A stretch of 64,000 nucleotides of DNA from the NCBI RefSeq assembly GCF_057098645.1, contig NZ_CM169472.1, one strand, 5' to 3'. Positions within the stretch are counted from its first letter, which is position 1, and each line of letters begins with the position of its first letter. Below are positions 4,069-57,562 of the stretch, in pieces. Below the pieces are notes generated by a model that saw nothing but the letters and a program-made list of their open reading frames with translations, was not told the origin of the DNA and did no database searches. Position numbers and translations under genes: made by a program.

Positions 4069-7181
<3,113 letters not shown>

Positions 7182-7187
7182 TCACAC

Positions 7188-7250
7188 AACATACGAGCCG
7201 GACGCATAAAGTGTAAAGCTTGGGGTGCCTAATGAGTGAGCTGACTCACA
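7188..7250 (-). promoter_or_regulatory. lacZ promoter: -10 TATGTT, -35 TTTACA and CAP site
   Basis: Minus strand gctTTACActttatgcgtccggctcgTATGTTgtgtg; CAP palindrome ttaatgtgagtcagctcactcatta further upstream. Confidence 0.8.
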
Positions 7251-7265
7251 TTAATTGCGTTGCGC

Positions 7266-8348
7266 TCACTGCCCGCTTTCCAGTCGGGAAACTTGTCGTG
7301 CCAGCTGCATTAATGAATCGGCCAACGCGCGGGGAGAGGCGGTTTGCGTCTTGGGCGCCAGGGTGGTTTTTCTTTTCACCAGTGAGACGGGCAACAGCTG
7401 ATTGCCCTTCACCGCCTGGCCCTGAGAGAGTTGCAGCAAGCGGTCCACGCTGGTTTGCCCCAGCAGGCGAAAATCCTGTTTGATGGTGGTTAACGGCGGG
7501 ATATAACACGAGCTGTCTTCGGTATCGTCGTATCCCACTACCGAGATATCCGCACCAACGCGCAGCCCGGACTCGGTAATGGCGCGCATTGCGCCCAGCG
7601 CCATCTGATCGTTGGCAACCAGCATCGCAGTGGGAACGATGCCCTCATTCAGCATTTGCATGGTTTGTTGAAAACCGGACATGGCACTCCAGTCGCCTTC
7701 CCGTTCCGCTATCGGCTGAATTTGATTGCGTGTGAGATATTTATGCCAGCCCGCCAGACGCAGACGTGCCGAGACAGAACTTAATGGACCCGCTAACAGC
7801 GCGATTTGCTGGTGACCCAATGCGACCAGATGCTCCACGCCCAGTCGCGTACCGTCTTCATGGGAGAAAATAATACTGTTGATGGGAGTCTGGTCAGAGA
7901 CATCAAGAAATAACGCCGGAACATTAGCGCAGGCTGCTTCCACAGCAGTGGCATCCTGGTCATCCAGCGGATAGTTAATGATCAGCCCACTGACGCGTTG
8001 CGCGAGAAGATTGTGCACCGCCGCTTTACAGGCTTCGACGCCGCTTCGTTCTACCATCGACACCACCACGCTGGCACCCAGTTGATCGGCGCGAGATTTA
8101 ATCGCCGCGACAATTTGCGATGGCGCGTGCAGGGCCAGACTGGAGGTGGCAACGCCAATCAGCAACGACTGTTTCCCCGCCAGTTGTTGTGCCACGCGGT
8201 TGGGAATGTAATTCAGCTCCGCCATCGCCGCTTCCACTTTTTCCCGCGTTTTCGCAGAAACGTGGCTGGCCTGGTTCACCACGCGGGAAACGGTCTGATA
8301 AGAGACACCGGCATACTCTGCGACATCGTATAGCGTTACTGGTTTCAC
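7266..8348 (-). CDS. lacI: Lactose repressor LacI, 360 aa, GTG start
   Basis: VKPVTLYDVAEYAGVSYQTVSRVVNQASHVSAKTREKVEAAMAELNYIPNRVAQQLAGKQS...; the ORF track extends three codons upstream, the recognised start is the GTG at 8348. Confidence 0.96.
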   Translation of the reverse strand: MKPVTLYDVAEYAGVSYQTVSRVVNQASHVSAKTREKVEAAMAELNYIPNRVAQQLAGKQSLLIGVATSSLALHAPSQIVAAIKSRADQLGASVVVSMVERSGVEACKAAVHNLLAQRVSGLIINYPLDDQDATAVEAACANVPALFLDVSDQTPINSIIFSHEDGTRLGVEHLVALGHQQIALLAGPLSSVSARLRLAGWHKYLTRNQIQPIAEREGDWSAMSGFQQTMQMLNEGIVPTAMLVANDQMALGAMRAITESGLRVGADISVVGYDDTEDSSCYIPPLTTIKQDFRLLGQTSVDRLLQLSQGQAVKGNQLLPVSLVKRKTTLAPKTQTASPRALADSLMQLARQVSRLESGQ

Positions 8349-8383
8349 ATTCACCACCCTGAATTGACTCTCTTCCGGGCGCT

Positions 8384-8412
8384 ATCATGCCATACCGCGA
8401 AAGGTTTTGCGC
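8384..8412 (-). promoter_or_regulatory. lacI promoter (-35 GCGCAA, -10 CATGAT)
   Basis: Minus strand gaatggcgcaaaacctttcgcggtatggcatgatagcgcc, identical to the classical lacI promoter; the -10 overlaps the stop codon of the upstream GlxA-like gene. Confidence 0.75.
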
Positions 8413-9338
8413 CATTCGGCGGGGCTGACGCCGAAGTGAGATTTAAAATGCTGACGCCAGGTCACAGGTGAGAGAAAACCCACCTCAGCCGCTATCCGCT
8501 CAACGGGCAACTGACTGGATCCCAACAGTTCCTGGCTACGGCGTAAGCGTTCAGTAATGAGCCATTCGGCGATACTCGAACCGGTCGCTTTCATAAAATG
8601 GCGAGTTAATGTGCGGCGACTCATCATTACTCGCTGCGCCAGCGAGTCGAGATCATGCTGTTGCGCAATGTTTTGCCGCAGGTAATCCAGCAGGAGATTA
8701 ATGCGTTCATCATGGGTATTTTTCGGCACTGGTTGCTCAATAAACTGCGCCTGACCGCCAGTGCGATATGGCGGTACGACCATCCGTCGGGCAATATGGT
8801 TAGCATAGTCGCTGCCAAAATGTTGCCGAACAATATACAAACAGCAATCCAGCGCCGCGGCAGTACCGGCAGAGGTAATAATGCCGTCATCGTCTACGTA
8901 CAACGCGTTAATATCCAGATGTGTTTGTGGAAAACGTGCCTGAAATTCACGCTCGAACTCCCAGTGTGTGGCGGCACGCTTATTTTTCAGTAAACCTGCA
9001 TAGCCGAGCACAAACGTGCCCAGGCAAAGCCCGACAATCTGTGCGCCGTTATCCCGTGCGGTCGTTAAGGCTTCCAGCAGTTTTTGTGGCGGTTTTTGTG
9101 TAATTGTTCCCCAGTAAGGAATTATCACAATATCCGCCTGGATGACTGCGGTATAGTCATGGGTGGCGGTTACGGAAAACCCATCGGCAGAGTCCACGTT
9201 TCCCGGCTTTTCAGCGCAGATAATTACGTGAAAGTGTTTTTTCTCCGCCATTTTTTCGCTAAATACGATAAACGGTACGGAAAGGTGAAAAGGACTAAAA
9301 CCGGCAACGGCGATAATGGCAACAGTTAGCGGGCGCAT
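8385..9338 (-). CDS. GlxA-family transcriptional regulator (N-terminal DJ-1/PfpI-like domain, C-terminal AraC-type HTH), 317 aa
   Basis: N-terminus VAIIAVAGFSPFHLSVPFIVF is a class-I glutamine-amidotransferase-like fold; C-terminus ...RRTLTRHFMKATGSSIAEWLITERLRRSQELL... is an AraC-type helix-turn-helix. Confidence 0.8.
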   Translation of the reverse strand: MRPLTVAIIAVAGFSPFHLSVPFIVFSEKMAEKKHFHVIICAEKPGNVDSADGFSVTATHDYTAVIQADIVIIPYWGTITQKPPQKLLEALTTARDNGAQIVGLCLGTFVLGYAGLLKNKRAATHWEFEREFQARFPQTHLDINALYVDDDGIITSAGTAAALDCCLYIVRQHFGSDYANHIARRMVVPPYRTGGQAQFIEQPVPKNTHDERINLLLDYLRQNIAQQHDLDSLAQRVMMSRRTLTRHFMKATGSSIAEWLITERLRRSQELLGSSQLPVERIAAEVGFLSPVTWRQHFKSHFGVSPAEWRKTFRGMA

Positions 9339-9357
9339 AACACTCTTTATCTCCGAA

Positions 9358-10134
9358 TTAGAATGTCAACGTTTCACCATCTTCTGGTACGTTTACAAAT
9401 TCGATAATTTGATTATCTCTGGCGTATTCCTTGAGCGCATCACGCGTCAGCAAACAGTGGTTTACGGCCTCCATATGTGTCGCGACAATTTGCGCTTCTG
9501 GCAGGGTAAAATGTGTTTTGAGAATATCTTCTGCTCCCATAATTATCGCGCCATGCCCCAGAACATGCGCAAATCCGGCATTCAACACAACCACTTCTGG
9601 TTGGAAAGTTAGCATTGTAGCCTCGACGTCGTCACGCCAGAGGGTATCGCCAGCCAGATAGAGCGTTTTCTCTGTCGGGTGCTGGAAAACAACGCCGCAG
9701 GCTGCGCCTAAACGCTTCGCCATAGCCGGGTCGGCATAGGTGCGATCGGAGCCGTGCTGCCCTGTCGTTTTATGCAGAGTAATATCGCCAAATTTAGTCT
9801 CGTCGGTAAGTACGGTAAGATGCGTAAATCCCTGTTTATTCAGTGATTCAGCATCTTGCTCATTTTGCACATAAATCAGTTTATCTTTAGGGACGACGCG
9901 GGAGGCTGTTTCGTCCCAGTGATCTTCATGCAAATGGGTCACGATTAGGGCGTCAACGTTGAGTAACGTTGTTAAATCGCACGGTAATTCTACCGTTGGA
10001 TTGCGGATTTCTGCGCGTGCCGTTCCGGCAAAACCCGGATAACTTCCTTTAGGCGCGAGTAACGGGTCGATAAGAAATGTTTTGCCAGCGTATTGGATAA
10101 TTTGGGTGGCATTACGAATTTGCGTAATTTTCAT
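9358..10134 (-). CDS. Metallo-beta-lactamase-fold hydrolase, about 258 aa
   Basis: HxHxDH motif (THLHEDHWDE) and downstream His/Asp ligands; likely ATG start at 10134 (the ORF track begins four codons earlier at a GTG); 19 bp upstream of the GlxA-like gene on the same strand. Confidence 0.8.
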   Translation of the reverse strand: MKITQIRNATQIIQYAGKTFLIDPLLAPKGSYPGFAGTARAEIRNPTVELPCDLTTLLNVDALIVTHLHEDHWDETASRVVPKDKLIYVQNEQDAESLNKQGFTHLTVLTDETKFGDITLHKTTGQHGSDRTYADPAMAKRLGAACGVVFQHPTEKTLYLAGDTLWRDDVEATMLTFQPEVVVLNAGFAHVLGHGAIIMGAEDILKTHFTLPEAQIVATHMEAVNHCLLTRDALKEYARDNQIIEFVNVPEDGETLTF

Positions 10135-10248
10135 GATTTGCCCCACATCACAGTATTGATGTCATTAGCGTAGCGTGCAGCCCGTACTGTGCATGTGGGC
10201 AAATGGGCGAATAACGATGAGAATGGGCCAATTTACACATTGGCGTAA

Positions 10249-11082
10249 CTAGCGTAAATGCACGCCGCTTCGCCGTCCGGCCACCAGAATAGCCTGCGAT
10301 TCAACCCCTTCTTCGATCTGTTTTGCTACCCGTTGTAGTGCCGGAAGATGCTTTTCCGCTGCTTGTTCGATGGTCATTGCGCTCGCCATATACACCAGAT
10401 TCAGACAGCCAATCACCCGCTGTTCACTGCGCAGCGGTACGGCGATAGAGGCGATCTTTTCCTCCTGATCCCAGCCGCGGTAGTTCTGTCCGTAACCCTC
10501 TTTGCGCGCGCGCGCCAGAATGGCTTCCAGCTTTAACGGTTCCCGTGCCAGTTGATAGTCATCACCGGGGCGGGAGGCTAACATTTCGATTAATTCCTTG
10601 CGTTCTTGTTCCGGGCAAAAGGCCAGCCAGGTCAGGCCCGAGGCGGTTTTCAGAAGCGGTAAACGTCGCCCGACCATTGCCCGGTGAAAAGATAATCGGC
10701 TGAAACGATGGGTGGTTTCGCGTACCACCATTGCATCAACATCCAGCGTGGACACATCTGTCGGCCATACCACTTCGCGCAACAGATCGCCCAGCAGTGG
10801 GGCCGCCAGTGCAGAAATCCACTGTTCGTCACGAAATCCTTCGCTTAATTGCCGCACTTTGATGGTCAGACGAAAACTATCATCGGAGGGACTACGCCGG
10901 ACATATCCCTCTTCCTGCAGCGTCTCCAGCAGTCGCCGCACAGTGGTGCGATGCAGGCCGCTGAGTTCCGCCAGCAGCCCGACGCTGGCACCGCCGTCAA
11001 GTTTATTTAACATATTTAATAACATTAGACCGCGGGTTAAGCCGCGCACGGTTTTGTATTCCGTCTGCTCATTGTTCTGCAT
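10249..11082 (-). CDS. mhpR: IclR-family activator MhpR, about 277 aa
   Basis: MQNNEQTEYKTVRGLTRGLMLLNMLNKLDGG...; the ORF track extends to 11196, the recognised start is the internal Met. Confidence 0.92.
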   Translation of the reverse strand: MQNNEQTEYKTVRGLTRGLMLLNMLNKLDGGASVGLLAELSGLHRTTVRRLLETLQEEGYVRRSPSDDSFRLTIKVRQLSEGFRDEQWISALAAPLLGDLLREVVWPTDVSTLDVDAMVVRETTHRFSRLSFHRAMVGRRLPLLKTASGLTWLAFCPEQERKELIEMLASRPGDDYQLAREPLKLEAILARARKEGYGQNYRGWDQEEKIASIAVPLRSEQRVIGCLNLVYMASAMTIEQAAEKHLPALQRVAKQIEEGVESQAILVAGRRSGVHLR

Positions 11083-11114
11083 ATTAATTGACATTTCTAT
11101 AGTTAAAACAACGT

Positions 11115-11131
11115 TGTGCACCTGGTGCACA
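11115..11131. promoter_or_regulatory. Perfect palindrome in the mhpR–mhpA divergent region (candidate MhpR operator)
   Basis: tGTGCACCtGGTGCACa between mhpR and mhpA. Confidence 0.6.
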
Positions 11132-11272
11132 TTCGGGCATGTTTTGATTGTAGCCGAAAACACCCTTCCTATACTGAGCGCACAATAAAAAATCATTTAC
11201 ATGTTTTTAACAAAATAAGTTGCGCTGTACTGTGCGCGCAACGGCATTTTGTCCGAGTCGTGAGGTACTGAA

Positions 11273-12937
11273 ATGGCAATACAACACCCTGACATCCAGC
11301 CTGCTGTTAACCATAGCGTTCAGGTGGCGATCGCTGGTGCCGGTCCGGTCGGGCTGATGATGGCGAACTATCTCGGCCAGATGGGCATTGACGTGCTGGT
11401 GGTGGAGAAACTCGATAAGTTGATCGACTACCCGCGTGCGATTGGTATTGATGACGAGGCGCTGCGCACCATGCAGTCGGTCGGCCTGGTCGATAATGTT
11501 CTGCCGCACACTACGCCGTGGCACGCGATGCGTTTTCTCACCCCGAAGGGCCGCTGTTTTGCTGATATTCAGCCAATGACCGATGAATTTGGCTGGCCGC
11601 GCCGTAACGCCTTTATTCAGCCGCAGGTCGATGCGGTGATGCTGGAAGGGGTGTCGCGTTTTCCGAATGTGCGCTGCTTGTTTTCCCGCGAGCTGGAGGC
11701 CTTCAGTCAGCAAGATGACGAAGTGACCTTGCACCTGAAAACGGCAGAAGGGCAGCGGGAAACGGTCAAAGCCCAGTGGCTGGTAGCCTGTGACGGTGGA
11801 GCAAGTTTTGTCCGTCGCACCCTGAATGTGCCGTTTGAAGGTAAAACTGCGCCAAATCAGTGGATTGTGGTAGATATCGCCAACGATCCGTTAAGTACGC
11901 CGCATATCTATTTGTGTTGCGATCCGGTGCGCCCGTATGTTTCTGCCGCGCTACCTCATGCGGTACGTCGATTTGAATTTATGGTGATGCCAGGAGAAAC
12001 CGAAGAACAGCTGCGTGAGCCGCAAAATATGCGCAAGCTGTTAAGCAAAGTGCTGCCTAATCCGGACAATGTTGAATTGATTCGCCAGCGTGTCTACACC
12101 CACAACGCGCGACTGGCGCAACGTTTCCGTATTGATCGCGTACTGCTGGCGGGCGATGCCGCGCACATCATGCCGGTATGGCAGGGGCAGGGCTATAACA
12201 GTGGCATGCGCGACGCCTTTAACCTCGCATGGAAACTGGCGTTGGTTATCCAGGGGAAAGCCCGCGATGCGCTGCTCGATACCTATCAACAAGAACGTCG
12301 CGATCACGCCAAAGCGATGATTGACCTGTCCGTGACGGCGGGCAACGTGCTGGCTCCGCCGAAACGCTGGCAGGGTACGTTACGTGACGGCGTTTCCTGG
12401 CTGCTGAATTATCTGCCGCCAGTAAAACGCTACTTCCTCGAAATGCGCTTCAAGCCGATGCCGCAATATTACGGCGGTGCGCTGGTACGTGAGGGCGAAG
12501 CGAAGCACTCTCCGGTCGGCAAGATGTTTATTCAGCCGAAAGTCACGCTGGAAAACGGCGACGTGACGCTGCTCGATAACGCGATCGGCGCGAACTTCGC
12601 GGTAATTGGCTGGGGATGCAATCCACTGTGGGGGATGAGCGACGAGCAAATCCAGCAGTGGCGCGCGTTGGGCACACGCTTCATTCAGGTGGTGCCGGAA
12701 GTGCAAATTCATACCGCACAGGATAACCATGACGGCGTACTACGCGTGGGGGATACGCAAGGTCGCCTGCGTAGCTGGTTCGCGCAACACAATGCTTCGC
12801 TGGTGGTGATGCGCCCGGATCGCTTTGTTGCCGCCACCGCCATTCCGCAAACCCTGGGCAAGACCCTGAATAAACTGGCGTCGGTGATGACGCTGACCCG
12901 CCCTGATGCCGACGTTTCTGTCGAAAAGGTAGCCTGA
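11273..12937 (+). CDS. mhpA: 3-(3-hydroxyphenyl)propionate hydroxylase MhpA, 554 aa
   Basis: FAD-binding N-terminus [29 protein letters not shown]; first gene of the mhp operon. Confidence 0.96.
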
Positions 12938-12938
12938 T

Positions 12939-13883
12939 ATGCACGCTTATCTTCATTGTCTTTCCCACTCGCCGCTGGTGGGGTATGTCGACCCGGCACA
13001 AGAGGTACTCGATGAGGTCAATGGCGTGATTGCCAGCGCCCGCGAGCGTATTGCGGCTTTCTCCCCTGAACTGGTGGTGCTGTTTGCGCCAGATCACTAC
13101 AACGGCTTTTTCTATGACGTGATGCCACCGTTCTGTTTAGGCGTTGGAGCGACGGCAATTGGTGATTTCGGCAGTGCGGCAGGAGAGCTGCCCGTGCCTG
13201 TGGAGCTGGCGGAGGCCTGTGCGCATGCCGTCATGAAGAGCGGGATCGATCTTGCCGTTTCTTACTGTATGCAGGTGGACCACGGGTTCGCCCAGCCGCT
13301 GGAGTTCCTGCTCGGTGGGCTGGATAAGGTGCCAGTTCTGCCTGTGTTCATCAACGGTGTCGCCACGCCGCTGCCCGGTTTCCAGCGTACCCGCATGTTG
13401 GGTGAAGCCATTGGACGTTTCACCAGCACTCTCAATAAACGCGTGCTGTTCCTGGGTTCCGGTGGGCTTTCCCATCAGCCGCCGGTGCCTGAACTGGCGA
13501 AAGCCGATGCCCATATGCGCGACCGTCTGTTGGGGAGCGGGAAAGATTTACCCGCCAGTGAGCGCGAATTGCGTCAGCAACGGGTGATTAGCGCCGCTGA
13601 GAAGTTTGTTGAGGATCAGAGAACTCTGCATCCGCTCAACCCGATTTGGGATAACCAGTTCATGACTTTGCTGGAGCAGGGACGCATACAGGAACTGGAT
13701 GCCGTCAGTAACGAAGAGCTTTCCGCCATTGCCGGAAAGTCGACACATGAAATCAAAACCTGGGTCGCCGCTTTTGCCGCTATTTCTGCATTTGGCAACT
13801 GGCGTAGCGAAGGGCGTTATTACCGCCCAATCCCGGAGTGGATTGCCGGATTTGGCTCGTTAAGCGCCAGAACAGAGAACTGA
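12939..13883 (+). CDS. mhpB: 2,3-dihydroxyphenylpropionate 1,2-dioxygenase MhpB, 314 aa
   Basis: [19 protein letters not shown]...; extradiol dioxygenase in operon position. Confidence 0.96.
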
Positions 13884-13900
13884 ATTTGCAGGAGAAGATG

Positions 13901-14767
13901 ATGAGTTATCAGCCACAAACCGAAGCCGCCACCAGCCGTTTTCTGAATGTAGAAGAAGCGGGTAAAACGCTGCGCATCCATTTTAATGACTGCGGACAAG
14001 GCGACGAAACCGTTGTCCTGCTGCATGGTTCCGGCCCGGGTGCTACTGGCTGGGCGAACTTCAGCCGCAATATCGATCCGCTGGTAGAGGCGGGCTATCG
14101 GGTGATCCTACTGGATTGTCCGGGTTGGGGCAAGAGCGATTCGATCGTTAATAGTGGTTCACGATCGGATCTTAATGCGCGCATCCTGAAAAGTGTGGTG
14201 GATCAACTGGATATCGCCAAAATCCACCTGTTGGGCAACTCGATGGGCGGCCATAGTTCTGTGGCGTTCACCCTTAACTGGCCGGAGCGCGTCGGCAAAC
14301 TGGTGCTGATGGGCGGCGGTACGGGCGGCATGAGTTTGTTTACGCCGATGCCAACCGAAGGTATTAAGCGACTGAATCAGCTTTATCGTCAGCCGACTAT
14401 CGAAAACCTGAAACTGATGATGGATATCTTCGTTTTTGATACCAGCGATTTGACCGACGCCCTGTTTGAAGCGCGCCTGAATAATATGCTGTCGCGCCGC
14501 GATCACCTGGAAAACTTCGTTAAGAGCCTGGAAGCCAATCCGAAACAGTTCCCTGATTTTGGCCCACGTCTGGCGGAAATCAAAGCGCAAACCCTGATTG
14601 TCTGGGGGCGCAACGACCGCTTTGTGCCGATGGATGCGGGGCTGCGTCTACTGTCCGGCATTGCTGGTTCTGAACTGCATATCTTCCGCGACTGTGGTCA
14701 CTGGGCGCAGTGGGAACATGCCGATGCTTTCAATCAACTGGTGCTGAATTTCCTCGCACGTGCTTAA
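13901..14767 (+). CDS. mhpC: 2-hydroxy-6-ketonona-2,4-dienedioate hydrolase MhpC, 288 aa
   Basis: Alpha/beta hydrolase with GNSMGG nucleophile motif; start [14 protein letters not shown] preceded by RBS caggagaag; the ORF track extends upstream to 13838. Confidence 0.93.
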
Positions 14768-16529
<1,762 letters not shown>

Positions 16530-16533
<4 letters not shown>

Positions 16534-17543
16534 ACGGTAAAAAACTTTATATCTCGGACGTCACGTTGCGTGACGGTATGCACGCCATTCGTCATCAGTA
16601 TTCGCTGGAAAACGTTCGCCAGATTGCCAAAGCACTGGACGATGCCCGCGTGGATTCGATTGAAGTGGCCCACGGCGACGGTTTGCAGGGTTCCAGCTTT
16701 AACTATGGTTTCGGCGCACATAGCGACCTTGAATGGATTGAAGCGGCGGCGGATGTTGTGAAGCACGCCAAAATCGCGACGTTGTTGCTGCCAGGAATCG
16801 GCACTATTCACGATCTGAAAAATGCCTGGCAGGCTGGCGCGCGGGTGGTTCGTGTGGCAACGCACTGTACCGAAGCTGATGTTTCCGCCCAGCATATTCA
16901 GTATGCCCGCGAGCTCGGAATGGACACCGTTGGTTTTCTGATGATGAGCCATATGACCACGCCGGAGAATCTCGCCAAGCAGGCAAAGCTGATGGAAGGC
17001 TACGGTGCGACCTGTATTTATGTGGTGGATTCTGGCGGTGCGATGAACATGAGCGATATCCGTGACCGTTTCCGCGCCCTGAAAGCAGTGCTGAAACCAG
17101 AAACGCAAACCGGCATGCACGCTCACCATAACCTGAGTCTTGGCGTGGCGAACTCTATCGCGGCGGTGGAAGAGGGCTGCGACCGAATCGACGCCAGCCT
17201 CGCGGGAATGGGCGCGGGCGCAGGTAACGCGCCGCTGGAAGTATTTATTGCCGCCGCGGATAAACTGGGTTGGCAGCATGGGGCCGATCTCTATGCGTTA
17301 ATGGATGCCGCTGACGACCTGGTGCGTCCGTTGCAGGATCGACCGGTACGAGTCGATCGCGAAACGCTGGCGCTGGGATACGCTGGTGTTTACTCCAGCT
17401 TCCTGCGTCACTGTGAAACGGCGGCGGCGCGTTATGGCTTAAGCGCGGTGGATATTCTCGTTGAGCTGGGCAAACGCCGGATGGTTGGCGGCCAGGAGGA
17501 TATGATCGTCGACGTGGCGCTGGATCTGCGCAACAACAAATAA
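16530..17543 (+). CDS. mhpE: 4-hydroxy-2-oxovalerate aldolase MhpE, 337 aa
   Basis: [25 protein letters not shown]...; 4-bp overlap with mhpF. Confidence 0.96.
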
Positions 17544-17585
17544 TATTGACTGCCGAGAACGTGCATTTTGTATGCCCATCCCAGC

Positions 17586-17945
<360 letters not shown>

Positions 17946-18019
17946 ATTAAATAGTTCTGATTACGCGGCTGGCAATGTATCAGTCGCGATTCACCTGCAC
18001 TCGCAACGAGGTTCATCTT

Positions 18020-19231
18020 ATGTCGACTCGTACCCCTTCATCATCTTCATCCCGCCTGATGCTGACCATCGGGCTTTGTTTTTTGGTCGCTCTGATGGAA
18101 GGGCTGGATCTTCAGGCGGCTGGCATTGCGGCGGGTGGCATCGCCCAGGCTTTCGCACTCGATAAAATGCAAATGGGCTGGATATTCAGCGCCGGAATAC
18201 TCGGTTTGCTACCCGGCGCGTTGGTTGGCGGAATGCTGGCGGACCGTTATGGTCGCAAGCGCATTTTGATTGGCTCAGTTGCGCTGTTTGGTTTGTTCTC
18301 GCTGGCAACGGCGATTGCCTGGGATTTCCCCTCACTGGTCTTTGCGCGGCTGATGACCGGTGTCGGGCTGGGGGCGGCGTTGCCGAATCTTATCGCCCTG
18401 ACGTCTGAAGCCGCGGGTCCACGTTTTCGTGGGACGGCAGTGAGCCTGATGTATTGCGGTGTTCCCATTGGCGCGGCGCTGGCGGCGACACTGGGTTTCG
18501 CGGGGGCAAATTTAGCATGGCAAACGGTGTTTTGGGTAGGTGGTGTGGTGCCGTTGATTCTGGTGCCGCTATTAATGCGCTGGCTGCCGGAGTCGGCGGT
18601 ATTCGCTGGCGAAAAACAGGCTGCGCCACCACTGCGTGCGTTATTTGCGCCAGAAACGGCAACCGCGACGCTGCTGCTGTGGCTGTGTTATTTCTTCACT
18701 CTGCTGGTGGTTTACATGTTGATCAACTGGCTACCGCTGCTTTTGGTGGAGCAAGGATTCCAGCCATCGCAGGCGGCAGGGGTGATGTTTGCACTGCAAA
18801 TGGGTGCGGCGAGCGGGACGTTAATGTTGGGCGCATTGATGGATAAGCTGCGTCCAGTAACCATGTCGCTACTGATTTATAGCGGCATGTTAGCTTCGCT
18901 GCTGGCGCTTGGAACGGTGTCGTCATTTAACGGTATGTTGCTGGCGGGATTTGTCGCGGGGTTGTTTGCGACAGGTGGGCAAAGCGTTTTGTATGCCCTG
19001 GCACCGTTGTTTTACAGTTCGCAGATCCGCGCAACAGGTGTGGGAACAGCCGTGGCGGTAGGGCGTCTGGGGGCTATGAGCGGTCCGTTACTGGCCGGGA
19101 AAATGCTGGCATTAGGCACTGGCACGGTCGGCGTAATGGCCGCTTCTGCACCGGGTATTCTTGTTGCTGGGTTGGCGGTGTTTATTTTGATGAGTCGGAG
19201 ATCAAGAATGCAGCCGTGTGCCGATGCCTGA
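18020..19231 (+). CDS. mhpT: 3-hydroxyphenylpropionate transporter MhpT (MFS), 403 aa
   Basis: MSTRTPSSSSSRLMLTIGLCFLVALMEGLDLQAAG...; the ORF track extends upstream to 17975. Confidence 0.93.
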   Translation: MSTRTPSSSSSRLMLTIGLCFLVALMEGLDLQAAGIAAGGIAQAFALDKMQMGWIFSAGILGLLPGALVGGMLADRYGRKRILIGSVALFGLFSLATAIAWDFPSLVFARLMTGVGLGAALPNLIALTSEAAGPRFRGTAVSLMYCGVPIGAALAATLGFAGANLAWQTVFWVGGVVPLILVPLLMRWLPESAVFAGEKQAAPPLRALFAPETATATLLLWLCYFFTLLVVYMLINWLPLLLVEQGFQPSQAAGVMFALQMGAASGTLMLGALMDKLRPVTMSLLIYSGMLASLLALGTVSSFNGMLLAGFVAGLFATGGQSVLYALAPLFYSSQIRATGVGTAVAVGRLGAMSGPLLAGKMLALGTGTVGVMAASAPGILVAGLAVFILMSRRSRMQPCADA

Positions 19232-19332
19232 CGCGCCTTATTAAGCAGGGGCGAAAGGGAATTGCCCCCAATACACCCACGGCGTTTACAGGTATACTCG
19301 CTAAAAATTATTCAGCGGGTTTGGAAACATAG

Positions 19333-19872
19333 ATGGCAAAACTTACCTTACAAGAGCAGTTGCTCAAAGCAGGATTAGTCACCAGCAAAAAAGCGGCGAA
19401 GGTCGAGAGAACGGCGAAAAAATCGCGAGTTCAGGCGCGTGAAGCTCGGGCTGCGGTAGAAGAAAATAAAAAGGCACAGCTTGAGCGTGATAAACAGCTT
19501 AGCGAACAGCAAAAACAAGCGGCGTTGGCGAAAGAATATAAAGCTCAGGTGAAGCAGCTTATTGAAATGAACCGGATCACCATTGCCAATGGCGATATTG
19601 GTTTTAACTTCACTGACGGCAATCTGATTAAGAAGATTTTTGTCGATAAGCTCACACAGGCGCAGTTGATTAATGGTCGTCTGGCGATTGCCCGCTTGTT
19701 GGTCGATAACAATAGCGAAGGTGAATACGCAATTATTCCCGCCAGCGTTGCCGATAAAATTGCTCAGCGTGATGCCAGCAGTATTGTGTTGCACAGCGCG
19801 CTCAGTGCCGAAGAGCAGGATGAAGACGATCCGTATGCCGACTTCAAAGTGCCTGATGATTTGATGTGGTAA
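19333..19872 (+). CDS. yaiL: Uncharacterised Lys/Glu-rich protein YaiL, 179 aa
   Basis: MAKLTLQEQLLKAGLVTSKKAAKVERTAKKSRVQ...; position matches yaiL between mhpT and frmB. Confidence 0.88.
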   Translation: MAKLTLQEQLLKAGLVTSKKAAKVERTAKKSRVQAREARAAVEENKKAQLERDKQLSEQQKQAALAKEYKAQVKQLIEMNRITIANGDIGFNFTDGNLIKKIFVDKLTQAQLINGRLAIARLLVDNNSEGEYAIIPASVADKIAQRDASSIVLHSALSAEEQDEDDPYADFKVPDDLMW

Positions 19873-19888
19873 ACATAGATAAGTCGTG

Positions 19889-19990
19889 CGCAGATGCCTG
19901 ATGCGACGCTATGCGCGTCTTATCATGCCTACGGCTTACGGGCGAAATGTAGGCGGATAAGGCGTTCTCGCCGCATCCGGCAGTCGAGCA
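19889..19990. repeat. REP element pair between yaiL and frmB
   Basis: gcctgatgcgacgct...gtcttatcatgcctacgg...gtaggcggataaggcgttctcgccgcatccggca. Confidence 0.7.
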
Positions 19991-19996
19991 CTATTA

Positions 19997-20830
19997 TCAA
20001 CGCATATTCAGTTTATTGGCGTGGTAGGCAATATGCTCGCCAATAAAACTGGAGACAAAATAATAGCTGTGGTCGTAACCCTCGTGATAACGGATTAACG
20101 TCTTGATATTCATCTCCTGGCAGATCTTTTCAAGATTTGGAGTCCGCAGCTGTTCTGCGTAAAAATCATCACTCAACCCCTGATCAACCATGATTTCCGC
20201 AACGCGTTGACCTTGTGAAATAAGACTCACCGGATCGTAATCCAACCAGGCCTCTTTATTTTCACCAAGATATGCGGCAAAGGCTTGCTGTCCCCACGGT
20301 ACTTGCGATGGGGAGACAATGGGCGAAAACGCCGAGACGCTGACATATTCATCTGGGTTACGTAACGCCAGCACCAGCGCGCCCAGCCCGCCCATAGAAT
20401 GACCAGAGATAGACTTTTTGGTCGTTGCCGGAAAATGATGCATCACTAAATCCGGCAGTTCGTTGCGGATATAGTCATACATTTTGTAATGTTCATTCCA
20501 CGGCGCTTGCGTCGCGTTCAGGTAAAACCCGGCACCTTGCCCGAGATCGTAACGGTCAGCATCTGCGACATGACTGCCTCGCGGACTGGTGTCCGGCGCA
20601 ACAACAATAATGTTGTGCTCAGCCGCGTAACGCTGCATCCCCGATTTAGTAATGAAATTCTGCTCGTTGCAGGTCAGGCCTGAAAGCCAGTACAGCACCG
20701 GCAATTTTTCATTCGCGGCTTTTGGTGGGAGATAGACGCCGACATTCATTTCACATTTCAGTGATTGGGAATAATGCCGATACACATTTTGCCAGCCGCC
20801 AAAGCTGGCATGTTTTTCAATGAGTTCCAT
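19997..20830 (-). CDS. frmB: S-formylglutathione hydrolase FrmB, 277 aa
   Basis: MELIEKHASFGGWQNVYRHYSQSLKCEMNVGVYLPP...; esterase D family with GHSMGG motif. Confidence 0.95.
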   Translation of the reverse strand: MELIEKHASFGGWQNVYRHYSQSLKCEMNVGVYLPPKAANEKLPVLYWLSGLTCNEQNFITKSGMQRYAAEHNIIVVAPDTSPRGSHVADADRYDLGQGAGFYLNATQAPWNEHYKMYDYIRNELPDLVMHHFPATTKKSISGHSMGGLGALVLALRNPDEYVSVSAFSPIVSPSQVPWGQQAFAAYLGENKEAWLDYDPVSLISQGQRVAEIMVDQGLSDDFYAEQLRTPNLEKICQEMNIKTLIRYHEGYDHSYYFVSSFIGEHIAYHANKLNMR

Positions 20831-57465: not shown

Positions 57466-57562
57466 ATCATGCCTGATGCGACGCTTGCCGCGTCTTATCA
57501 GGCCTACAAAATGTGCCAGAACCGCGTAGGGCGGATAAGGCGTTCACGCCGCATCCGGCAAT
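57466..57562. repeat. REP element pair between convergent mak and araJ
   Basis: atcatgcctgatgcgacgcttgccgcgtcttatcaggcctac...gtagggcggataaggcgttcacgccgcatccggca. Confidence 0.75.

Follow-up and report, generated by a model that had tools for sequence, protein, structure and literature searches.

O-island 19 of the EHEC O157:H7 strain EDL933, with a published size of 1,834 bp (PMC8565820), comprises the genes z0442 (ovrA) and z0443. According to the accounts given in two reviews (PMC8565820, PMC10877973), OvrA activates ler and the LEE by binding to the LEE1 promoter (Liu et al., 2020, J Infect Dis 221:820), and its action on ler has been reported experimentally for O157:H7, O145:H28, O157:H16, and O55:H7. 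O-islands are collectively described as "horizontally acquired" (PMC8565820), and the O-island 19 literature treats the segment as an O157-type accessory element, with lacI unmentioned. OvrA shares its architecture, a DJ-1/PfpI-like N-terminal domain followed by a C-terminal HTH_18 domain, with the GlxA/FtrA-type regulators of the AraC family. The second relevant system is the lacI promoter of E. coli K-12, of which lacIq and lacIq1 are up-mutations (Calos, 1978; Glascock & Weickert, 1998; both as cited in PMC7049694) and in which an engineered NheI site has been placed over the -10 element (PMC7049694). The gene upstream of lacI has been given as mhpR even for O157 Sakai, which overlooks the two island genes (PMC4549013). 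A search of the searchable literature for lacI together with ovrA or z0442, and for lacI/mhpR/Citrobacter synteny, yielded no prior description of the overlap reported here.

We analyzed a stretch of 64,000 nucleotides from contig NZ_CM169472.1 (RefSeq assembly GCF_057098645.1), hereafter called the window, which derives from an E. coli O145:H28 strain and is identical in sequence to strain RM9872. Its ovrA gene (z0442; 8385-9338, minus strand) encodes, according to the open reading frame listing, a GlxA/FtrA-like regulator of 317 amino acids followed by a stop codon. It is the "GlxA-like gene" of an earlier description of this DNA, the original prediction, which had been made from the letters of the sequence. 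PGAP names the gene either "GlxA family transcriptional regulator" or "ovrA: OI-19-encoded virulence regulator OvrA". The DJ-1/PfpI domain (PF01965, DJ-1_PfpI) covers residues 6-171 (3e-12) and the AraC-type HTH domain (PF12833, HTH_18) residues 233-311 (3e-19). The best NCBIfam model is FtrA (NF006902). Because the score of 324.6 bits does not reach the equivalog cut-off of 425, the protein was filed as an FtrA-family relative only; judged by sequence, OvrA is a relative of FtrA and not FtrA itself. OvrA falls into an orthologue group of its own, whose members nearly always adjoin a gene for an MBL-fold hydrolase.

In the window, this neighbor is the z0443-like MBL-fold metallo-hydrolase gene, the second gene of O-island 19 (9358-10134, minus strand; as annotated by PGAP in the identical record of O145 RM9872). 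Beyond it lies mhpR (10249-11082, minus strand), whose TAG stop codon occupies 10249-10251. O-island 19 of EDL933 is the same locus, with 98.8% nucleotide identity over 1,741 nt and the same flanking genes. As the gene is ovrA, its presence/absence polymorphism has been on record since O-islands were defined by the comparison of EDL933 with K-12. On the other side of ovrA lies the lacI coding sequence (7266-8348, minus strand; transferred PGAP coordinates), whose product shares 99.2% amino acid identity with K-12 LacI. The listing of open reading frames over-extends lacI to 8357; the GTG at 8348 was taken as the start codon. The ovrA stop and the lacI start lie just 36 nt apart.

The 317-residue product of 8385-9338 closes with GVSPAEWRKTFRGMA before TGA, that is, the C-terminus of OvrA reads ...PAEWRKTFRGMA, followed by the TGA stop. 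The bases at this 3' end, gaatggcgcaaaacctttcgcggtatggcatga at 8417-8385 on the minus strand, contain the lacI promoter: the last 33 bases of ovrA correspond to the K-12 lacI promoter base for base. The -35 hexamer GCGCAA (8407-8412, minus strand), identical in K-12, consists of the third base of the W309 codon, the R310 codon (CGC), and the first two bases of the K311 codon. A 17-nt spacer separates it from the -10 hexamer CATGAT (8384-8389, minus strand), which is composed of the last two bases of A317, the TGA stop (8385-8387), and one base more. These hexamers are the lacI -35 and -10 elements of the classical literature (Calos, 1978, as cited in PMC7049694), and the expected transcription start, the G of GGAAGAGAG at 8376 (minus strand), corresponds to the 5' end of the K-12 lacI mRNA (Steege, 1977, listed in PMC7049694), which would leave a 28-nt leader. 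The original prediction had located the promoter in the 3' end of the GlxA-like gene, with the -10 element over the stop codon, and the open reading frame 8385-9338 indeed ends with the K-12 promoter bases. The range given there, 8380-8415, was in the right place but about 2-5 bases off, as the bases of the ovrA tail are 8417-8385.

From 8418 to 8340, the window and K-12 are identical base for base, covering the -35 element, the spacer, the -10 element, the leader, and the GTG start. The K-12 promoter thus has the same sequence as the window from -45 to the lacI start codon; it is intergenic in K-12, whereas in the window it is coding sequence of another gene, ovrA. A chance resemblance was rejected, as the matching bases terminate an uninterrupted stretch of homology that extends through lacI, lacZ, and lacY. 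A simple consensus promoter scan of 8200-10400 did not call the lacI promoter, as is to be expected of a promoter known to be weak, with 2/6 and 4/6 consensus positions, and its assignment rests on the literature for that reason. An Rfam scan of 7000-20500 returned only matches to the REP-derived naRNA4, far from the locus.

The corresponding region of K-12 MG1655 (NC_000913.3) reads ...gcatttacgtTGAcaccatCGAATGGCGCAAAACCTTTCGCGGTATGGCATGATAGCGCCCGG... and equals the window from c8418 through the lacI start, while the upstream DNA is unrelated. In BLAST searches, K-12-type genomes matched from query position 1843, which is position 8418 of the window. Both the predicted identity from "cgaatgg" onward and the predicted retention of the final ten or so codons were borne out, with the break exactly at 8418 and ten complete codons, E308-A317, plus the stop retained. 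The ovrA tail kept in K-12-type genomes (8385-8418, minus strand; 34 nt) comprises the codons for EWRKTFRGMA, the stop, and one preceding base, the last of the A307 codon. This remnant is too short for annotation in K-12. The segment absent from these genomes (8419-10252, unstranded) measures 1,834 bp, the size of O-island 19. A CGCC microhomology is present at both ends. The right copy (8418-8421, minus strand) lies inside a perfect hairpin, CGCC-gaat-GGCG (8410-8421), and the left copy (10242-10245, minus strand) is found 4-7 nt past the end of mhpR, on its downstream side. Under a microhomology deletion, 8418-10241 (1,824 bp) would have been lost, and fusion of the two copies should give an mhpR-lacI spacer of 76 bp, as is present in K-12 and in a second junction variant.

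In K-12, the last mhpR codon and "cgaatgg" are separated by 9 nt (TGAcaccat, variant K) that match neither island flank. The second variant (TAAtgccgc, variant L), present in at least 166 genomes, differs from K by five transitions and keeps the ovrA tail up to 8422, four bases more than K. Given these two junction sequences, either the microhomology deletion was not a clean, simple one, or there was more than one such event. Downstream of mhpR, TGAcaccat was found neither in Citrobacter nor in any of seven E. coli with the island, which included a haplotype ~5% divergent. It may have arisen by a template switch at a quasi-palindrome (ccat-cga-atgg in K-12, cgcc-gaat-ggcg in the intact gene). 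K and L might stem from independent deletions at the same microhomology rather than from one event plus mutation. For two events speak the 5/9 differing junction bases next to flanks that differ by ~1-2%, the spacer of exactly 76 bp in both variants, as expected from the CGCC repeats, and the four additional tail bases in L. However, all five differences are transitions, the last mhpR codon is cgt, not cgc, in both variants, and the simple predicted product, ttacgcc joined to gaatgg, equals neither junction. We regard independent deletions as conceivable but doubtful.

A second, nested deletion was detected in 487 genomes, among them 536, Nissle, and the type strain ATCC 11775. A BLAST comparison of the 536 locus with the window showed that the segment 8484-19267 (unstranded; 10,784 bp) is absent from these B2-type genomes. 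The loss includes most of ovrA, z0443, mhpR, mhpABCDFE, and mhpT, and the junction is located 65 nt upstream of yaiL. The retained ovrA tail (8385-8483, minus strand; 99 nt) is annotated by PGAP as a GlxA-family pseudogene with a missing N-terminus (ECP_RS24450 in E. coli 536). This pseudogene upstream of lacI represents the same ovrA tail as the K-12 remnant but originates from a different, larger deletion of 10.8 kb, which also removed the mhp cluster. Across 5,426 complete E. coli genomes, the full form was found in 435, the K-12-type scar in 4,454, and the B2-type scar in 487, which accounts for 5,376 of the 5,387 genomes with any match. Phylogroup distribution was read from strain names only; on this basis, the K-12-type scar also occurs in phylogroup B1 strains, e.g., O103:H2 and O111:H8. 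K-12-type genomes hold 34 nt of ovrA and have kept the mhp genes, whereas B2-type genomes hold 99 nt and have lost mhpR through mhpT. As neither state can be derived from the other, both must go back to the full form.

Citrobacter sedlakii carries a collinear mhpR-MBL-ovrA-lacI-lacZ-lacY block with 71-82% nucleotide identity to the window, and its mhpR-MBL spacer is in part homologous. The ovrA gene of this species ends with RGMA-stop over the same CATGAT, followed by TGATAG, and lacI starts 36 nt past the stop. The -35, spacer, and -10 sequences within the intact ovrA genes of the window and C. sedlakii are identical. We recovered 80 ovrA orthologue loci from Citrobacter, Kluyvera, Erwinia, Aeromonas, Geomonas, Marinobacter, and other hosts. 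Nearly all of the orthologues contain the motif SP.EWR(K/R)TF, and in most, the MBL gene is a neighbor whereas lac genes are missing. The ten retained codons thus represent real coding sequence: the EWR(K/R)TF tail is maintained even where no lac genes are close by, and the HTH_18 domain of OvrA reaches residue 311. The last 34 nt of ovrA are identical at 32/34 positions between E. coli and C. sedlakii, as compared to 71.6% for the whole gene, and third codon positions match at 10/11 sites versus 45% overall (p about 0.002). This signal of dual constraint comes from one species pair; across 16 ovrA genes of Escherichia and Citrobacter, synonymous-site conservation of the tail was no outlier.

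We consider it very likely that the full layout, with the promoter inside the ovrA tail, is ancestral and that the region upstream of lacI in K-12 is the scar of an ovrA deletion. The sequence relationships, the haplotype counts, the Citrobacter synteny, and the conservation of the protein tail were observed directly. The ancestral gene order would have been mhpR - z0443 - ovrA - lacI - lacZYA, with a single reading direction from mhpR to lacA, and the window would have kept it. A low-level, constitutive sigma-70 promoter for lacI would have resided within the 3' end of ovrA, its -35 element in the conserved Trp-Arg-Lys codons of the HTH tail. In most E. coli, a deletion of ~1.8 kb, probably between the CGCC microhomologies, would then have taken z0443 and all of ovrA except the last ten codons, thereby setting the mhpR stop 9 nt upstream of the retained block and 15 nt upstream of the -35 hexamer. 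We infer the microhomology mechanism of this event. An independent 10.8-kb deletion in 536, Nissle, and ATCC 11775 would have extended from upstream of yaiL to ovrA codon 285. The surviving rearrangements would be those sparing the block from about -45 to +1, because its loss would abolish LacI synthesis; selection on LacI expression has presumably shaped which deletions persist.

To judge from the sequence, what serves K-12 as "lacI promoter" is left over from the coding sequence of ovrA. The original prediction had proposed a deletion in the K-12 lineage. A deletion is supported by the nested scars and the C. sedlakii outgroup, but with the scar present in 4,454 of 5,426 genomes, it is not an event of the K-12 lineage. 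Likewise, the proposed coding remnant exists in the form of the ovrA tail, but the promoter was not created by the deletion, which it predates, as the intact gene contains the same -35, spacer, and -10. Two opposing outcomes, a different break point and an insertion, had been named beforehand, and both were tested: the break lies at 8418, and the direction is that of a deletion.

The base identity leads us to infer that strains with the island initiate lacI transcription at this promoter from the same position. In these strains, lacI might alternatively be transcribed mainly by read-through from the z0443-ovrA transcript, with the internal promoter becoming important only after the deletion and LacI levels differing between O157/O145 and K-12. 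A terminator scan of 8200-10400 revealed no terminator-like structure in the 36 nt between the ovrA stop and the lacI start, which would permit read-through, and the DNA upstream of -45 is completely different in the two forms, so that UP-element-like contributions could differ. The -35 element, spacer, -10 element, and leader are, however, base-identical in both forms and conserved in C. sedlakii, which argues for use of the promoter in the intact arrangement and makes a mainly read-through-driven lacI unlikely.

The compact arrangement of ovrA and lacI could itself be secondary. In the C. freundii complex, a methyltransferase-like ORF on the opposite strand lies between ovrA and lacI, and a decayed second ovrA tail (aatg.cg.aaaacc...tgtggcat.atagcgcg), which starts at the position of the K-12 scar, is located directly upstream of lacI. 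A spacer of ~770 bp with the opposite-strand ORF occurs in 12/14 Citrobacter loci, and a 148-bp remnant in one more; the loci with the inserted ORF belong mostly to the C. freundii complex. An ancestor with the methyltransferase-like gene between two tail copies would have offered these direct copies as a ready substrate for precise deletion, by which E. coli and C. sedlakii would have recombined to the compact form. We judge this quite unlikely. The compact form, with the same RGMA-stop ending and TGATAG, is found in two distant lineages, Escherichia and C. sedlakii, whereas the ORF-bearing loci are from closely related Citrobacter, where a single insertion is the more economical explanation. 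Even after secondary compaction, the promoter copy would derive from the ovrA tail, and the K-12 sequence would still be a deletion scar. With the compact form as the ancestral one, three rearrangements would have spared the block, namely, the two nested deletions in E. coli and the insertion in the C. freundii complex, which would have kept both functions by duplication of the tail.

The borders of O-island 19 contain neither mobility genes nor a tRNA gene; the island consists of two ordinary genes only, the sole repeat at its borders is the 4-nt CGCC, and a GC content of 46-51% does not mark it as a mobile island. Unlike a horizontally acquired island, it has the same genes at the same site in 14 Citrobacter species. 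As in a deletion scar, the fragment left behind matches the end of the intact orthologue in order and reading frame, and an outgroup has the gene in its intact form. A horizontal insertion into the O157/O145 lineage, with mhpR next to lacI as the ancestral state, accords with the definition of O-islands as EDL933 DNA absent from K-12 and their designation in reviews (PMC8565820), with the island's presence in only 435/5,426 genomes, with the absence of ovrA from every non-coli Escherichia representative among the species-representative genomes scanned, and with an island GC content of 46-51% compared to 55-58% in the flanking lac and mhp genes, but it is contradicted by the nested remnants and was rejected as extremely improbable: it requires an AraC-family gene without its last ten codons that became fused in frame to a promoter encoding the conserved EWRKTFRG tail, it leaves unexplained both the 99-nt ovrA remnant in island-less B2 strains and the same gene order and stop/-10 overlap at 71-82% identity in C. 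sedlakii, it is met by a locus with neither mobility genes nor a tRNA gene nor long repeats on its flanks, and it cannot turn to assembly or annotation artefacts, which are excluded by 4,454 + 487 independent complete genomes. Since the identity amounts to only 71-82%, a recent recombinant import of the island form from Citrobacter likewise appears unlikely. In contrast to the O157-type accessory element of the literature, the intact arrangement is best read as an ancestral state common with Citrobacter that was lost from ~91% of sequenced E. coli.

Deletion of ovrA also bears on the known promoter mutants and on laboratory constructs. The lacIq1 -35 sequence TTGACA is formed with the mhpR TGA stop at the deletion junction, as seen in a laboratory strain (L085), and is absent from island-bearing strains, whose mhpR ends in TAG; the junction explains its origin. 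The lacIq change, GCGCAA to GTGCAA, would alter C8411 and convert R310 to Cys in the conserved tail of OvrA. Because this change would hit a conserved Arg, it suggests that strengthening of the natural promoter may have been difficult as long as ovrA was intact. The segment "gacaccatcgaatggcgcaaaacc..." on common lacI-bearing cloning vectors corresponds to the last ten codons of ovrA, and vectors that reach further upstream also carry the mhpR stop codon. With the deletion, a DNA segment that ranks among the most widely used in molecular biology is given a concrete origin. The finding reveals no new mechanism or new kind of element; the individual parts are all known, and the history is built from known parts.

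With regard to the wider history, we lean, if only slightly, toward a scenario in which a weak lacI promoter has resided inside the coding tail of another regulator since before the Escherichia-Citrobacter split, three independent rearrangements kept the ~45-bp block, O-island 19 belongs to the ancestral core, the OvrA-LEE connection is a co-option, and LacI is coupled to ovrA. The description of O-island 19 and OvrA in the EHEC literature would be corrected to that of an ancestral, mostly lost segment, which bears on how LEE regulation was assembled. If this scenario is true, O-island 19 would not be an acquired virulence island but a part of the ancestral core that about nine-tenths of E. 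coli have lost, and OvrA would be a long-resident regulator that was co-opted for control of the LEE. In pathogens with the island, the supply of LacI may then, unlike in K-12, be coupled to the transcription and translation of ovrA.

In the window, mhpR (11082-10249, TAG stop) is followed, all on the minus strand, by a gene for an MBL-fold hydrolase of 258 aa (10134-9358), a regulator gene of 317 aa (9338-8385), lacI (8348-7266, GTG start) and, beyond lacI, lacZ and lacY. A mechanical ORF list over-extended two of these, setting the lacI GTG at 8357 instead of the true 8348 (extra 8349-8357) and giving mhpR 315 aa versus 277 aa in PGAP (extra 11083-11196). From 8340 to 10260, the window and E. 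coli O145 strain RM9872 agree at every base (100% identity), and the same genes are annotated in that strain. In the regulator, residues 6-171 form a DJ-1/PfpI-like domain and residues 233-311 an AraC-type HTH_18 domain; its top NCBIfam model is FtrA, with a score under the cut-off, and its newer PGAP name is "ovrA: OI-19-encoded virulence regulator OvrA". In EDL933, ovrA (z0442) and its neighbour z0443 constitute the 1,834-bp O-island 19, and OvrA is reported to activate ler (PMC8565820, PMC10877973). The island has a GC content of 46-51%, and neither the ORF list nor the annotation contains mobility genes or a tRNA gene in it. Elsewhere, a REP/BIME-type unit of 101 bp is repeated in tandem 3.4 times at 17584-17926, where matches to Rfam naRNA4 (RF02564) fall on both strands; copies related to it lie near 57469-57560 and at the locus of strain 536.

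The ovrA gene ends with ...GVSPAEWRKTFRGMA, then TGA, and 8417-8385 reads gaatggcgcaaaacctttcgcggtatggcatga. We take the classical lacI promoter elements (Calos 1978, cited in PMC7049694) to be GCGCAA for the -35 and CATGAT for the -10 hexamer. On this assumption, the -35 element (8412-8407, minus strand) overlaps W309, R310 and K311 of OvrA, and the -10 element (8389-8384, minus strand) overlaps A317, the stop codon and one base more. The original prediction, which placed the lacI promoter inside the 3' end of a GlxA-like gene with the -10 over the stop codon, was therefore correct to within a few bases. In K-12 MG1655, the mhpR-lacI distance is 76 bp and the sequence there reads ...catttacgtTGAcaccatCGAATGGCGCAAAACCTTTCGCGGTATGGCATGATAGCGCCCGGAAGAG.... 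Aligned with K-12, the window is identical from minus-strand position 8418 to the lacI start and shows no similarity upstream; in thousands of genomes, BLAST located the break at window 8418 (query position 1843). The predicted identity from 'cgaatgg' onward, with divergence before it, was thus borne out, as was the survival in K-12 of the final ten or so codons (E308-A317 plus the stop, in the ovrA frame). Because of this identity, RNA polymerase in the window strain very likely uses the same weak promoter within ovrA, starting near 8376, a position that we presume from the 5' end of the K-12 lacI mRNA. A scan found no terminator-like structure between ovrA and lacI, and read-through from ovrA may therefore add to lacI transcription. 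A 2025 preprint describes a CRP site at the K-12 lacI promoter, protected from -6 to +22 (10.1101/2025.11.14.688166); this part of the lacI leader region (8349-8383) has the same sequence in the window and falls within the 36-nt ovrA-lacI spacer.

Haplotypes were counted in 5,426 complete E. coli genomes. The full form with the island was present in 435 (O157:H7, O55:H7, O145:H28, O157:H16 and scattered others) and the K-12-type junction in 4,454 (including K-12, O103:H2, O111:H8, O121:H19 and W). In a further 487, among them 536, Nissle 1917 and the type strain ATCC 11775, yaiL is joined to a 99-nt ovrA remnant followed by lacI, a clean loss of window 8484-19267; in B2 strains, PGAP already marks this remnant as a pseudogene of the GlxA family. 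The K-12-type form has a 34-nt ovrA remnant and retains the mhp genes, and the third form has the longer remnant and is missing the genes from mhpR to mhpT. Since neither form can have given rise to the other, both must descend from the full form. The mhpR and lacI flanks of O157 and O145 are about 98% identical to K-12. An island-bearing haplotype in RMDEC465, E600003 and N96 (loci L086, L087 and L088) has flanks 94-95.5% identical to K-12 and may belong to a deep lineage or have been imported from a cryptic clade; in RMDEC465, lacZ is annotated as frameshifted.

As outgroups, species-representative genomes were searched with the OvrA protein, and the loci were mapped by tblastn. In 14 Citrobacter species, the MBL-ovrA pair precedes lac genes, namely lacI and lacZ in 13 and lacZ without detectable lacI in one; mhpR is upstream in 10 of the 14. 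In Citrobacter sp. R56 (locus L006, 8951-9789), the gap of ~840 bp between ovrA and lacZ gave no lacI match, and the repressor gene may have been lost. In C. sedlakii, the entire mhpR-MBL-ovrA-lacI-lacZ-lacY block matches the window collinearly, with 71-82% nucleotide identity, and homology can still be recognised in part of the mhpR-MBL spacer. Its ovrA ends in RGMA and a stop, then TGATAG, and lacI starts 36 nt past the stop. Nearly all of 80 OvrA orthologues, from Kluyvera, Erwinia, Aeromonas, Geomonas, Marinobacter and others, share the tail SP.EWR(K/R)TF, and most have the MBL gene alongside and no lac genes nearby. Judged by sequence, the codons kept in K-12 are genuine coding sequence. 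Haplotypes, outgroup and coding tail show that the direction of change was deletion, not insertion.

E. coli and C. sedlakii both have the overlap, and over the final 34 nt of ovrA they agree at 32 of 34 positions, versus 71.6% gene-wide; third codon positions match in 10 of 11 cases versus 45% overall (binomial p about 0.002). Windows of 34 nt as identical as the tail are confined to the last ~85 nt of the gene. Among 16 ovrA genes, most from the freundii complex, the tail was no outlier for synonymous-site conservation. The case for a dual constraint on the tail is therefore no more than suggestive.

In C. freundii-complex loci (L004, L005, L007-L013, L016 and L017; ~8950-9730), a SAM-methyltransferase-like ORF of ~206 aa lies on the opposite strand between ovrA and lacI, its stop abutting that of ovrA. 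There, OvrA ends in RGD, RGV or RGAA, and a decayed second copy of the ovrA tail lies directly 5' of lacI, e.g. aaatgacgaaaaacctttcatggtgtggcatgatagcgcg in Citrobacter sp. MGH106. This copy is homologous to the tail in E. coli and C. sedlakii from 'aatg' onward, the point at which the K-12 scar also starts. C. youngae ATCC 29220 (L015) has only 148 bp at the position of the ORF, apparently through secondary loss. All three rearrangements, two deletions and one insertion, spare the tail, so that what persists is the block from about -45 to +1. From the position of the three break points, we infer that only deletions sparing the promoter persisted.

The tetranucleotide CGCC occurs at 10245-10242, 4-7 nt past the mhpR stop, and at 8421-8418. 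A join between these copies would remove 1,824 bp and leave mhpR and lacI 76 bp apart, exactly the spacing observed. The second copy is part of a perfect 4-bp-stem hairpin, CGCC-gaat-GGCG (8410-8421), whose position coincides exactly with the right-hand break point of the K-12-type deletion; the K-12 junction forms ccat-cga-atgg in its place. Simple joining would yield TAG ttacgcc/gaatgg (slash, join), and all seven island-bearing strains checked, including one haplotype ~5% divergent from K-12, read TAG tt[a/g]cgcc. Most genomes have TGA caccatc/gaatgg (variant K), and at least 166, E. coli W and O121:H19 among them, have TAA tgccgcc/gaatgg (variant L). Between K and L, five of nine bases differ, all by transition, against a divergence of 1-2% in their flanks. 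A clean CGCC event does not account for these junction bases. The K/L difference may reflect two separate events, repair that was error-prone, or template switching at a quasi-palindrome. The mhpR stop itself varies by haplotype: TAG in the full form (10249-10251), TAA in L (locus L084, 1496-1498) and TGA in K (K-12 locus, L001). A lacIq1 allele in isolate FELIX_MS78 (L085, NZ_CP148133.1, 1490-1525) has a 15-bp deletion giving acgTTGACAcc/acctttcgcggtatggCATGAT. The lacIq1 -35 element TTGACA consists of the last base of the final mhpR codon, the TGA stop and CA (L001 2080-2095), and therefore exists only on the K-type junction.

Overall, the predicted observation was confirmed, and its interpretation is supported with three corrections. 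A deletion was rightly proposed, supported by nested remnants, outgroup and coding tail, but not one specific to the K-12 lineage: the scar, in 4,454 of 5,426 genomes, is the majority state in E. coli. The lacI promoter does derive from ovrA coding sequence, but it predates the deletion rather than being left by it. Finally, the GlxA-like gene is ovrA of O-island 19, as its PGAP name states.

O-island 19 and OvrA are already described in print, as is the classic lacI promoter. A review refers in general terms to "horizontally acquired OIs" (PMC8565820), and in a paper on the lac flanks, mhpR is given as the upstream neighbour of lacI, O157 Sakai included (PMC4549013). In the literature searched, we found no paper naming lacI together with ovrA or z0442, and no statement placing the lacI promoter in the ovrA coding tail or calling the island ancestral. 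The case adds a well-documented new example of familiar phenomena, namely a promoter lying within the gene upstream and a scar left by deletion. It reveals no new mechanism; it is a historical footnote to the lac system and corrects the framing of O-island 19.
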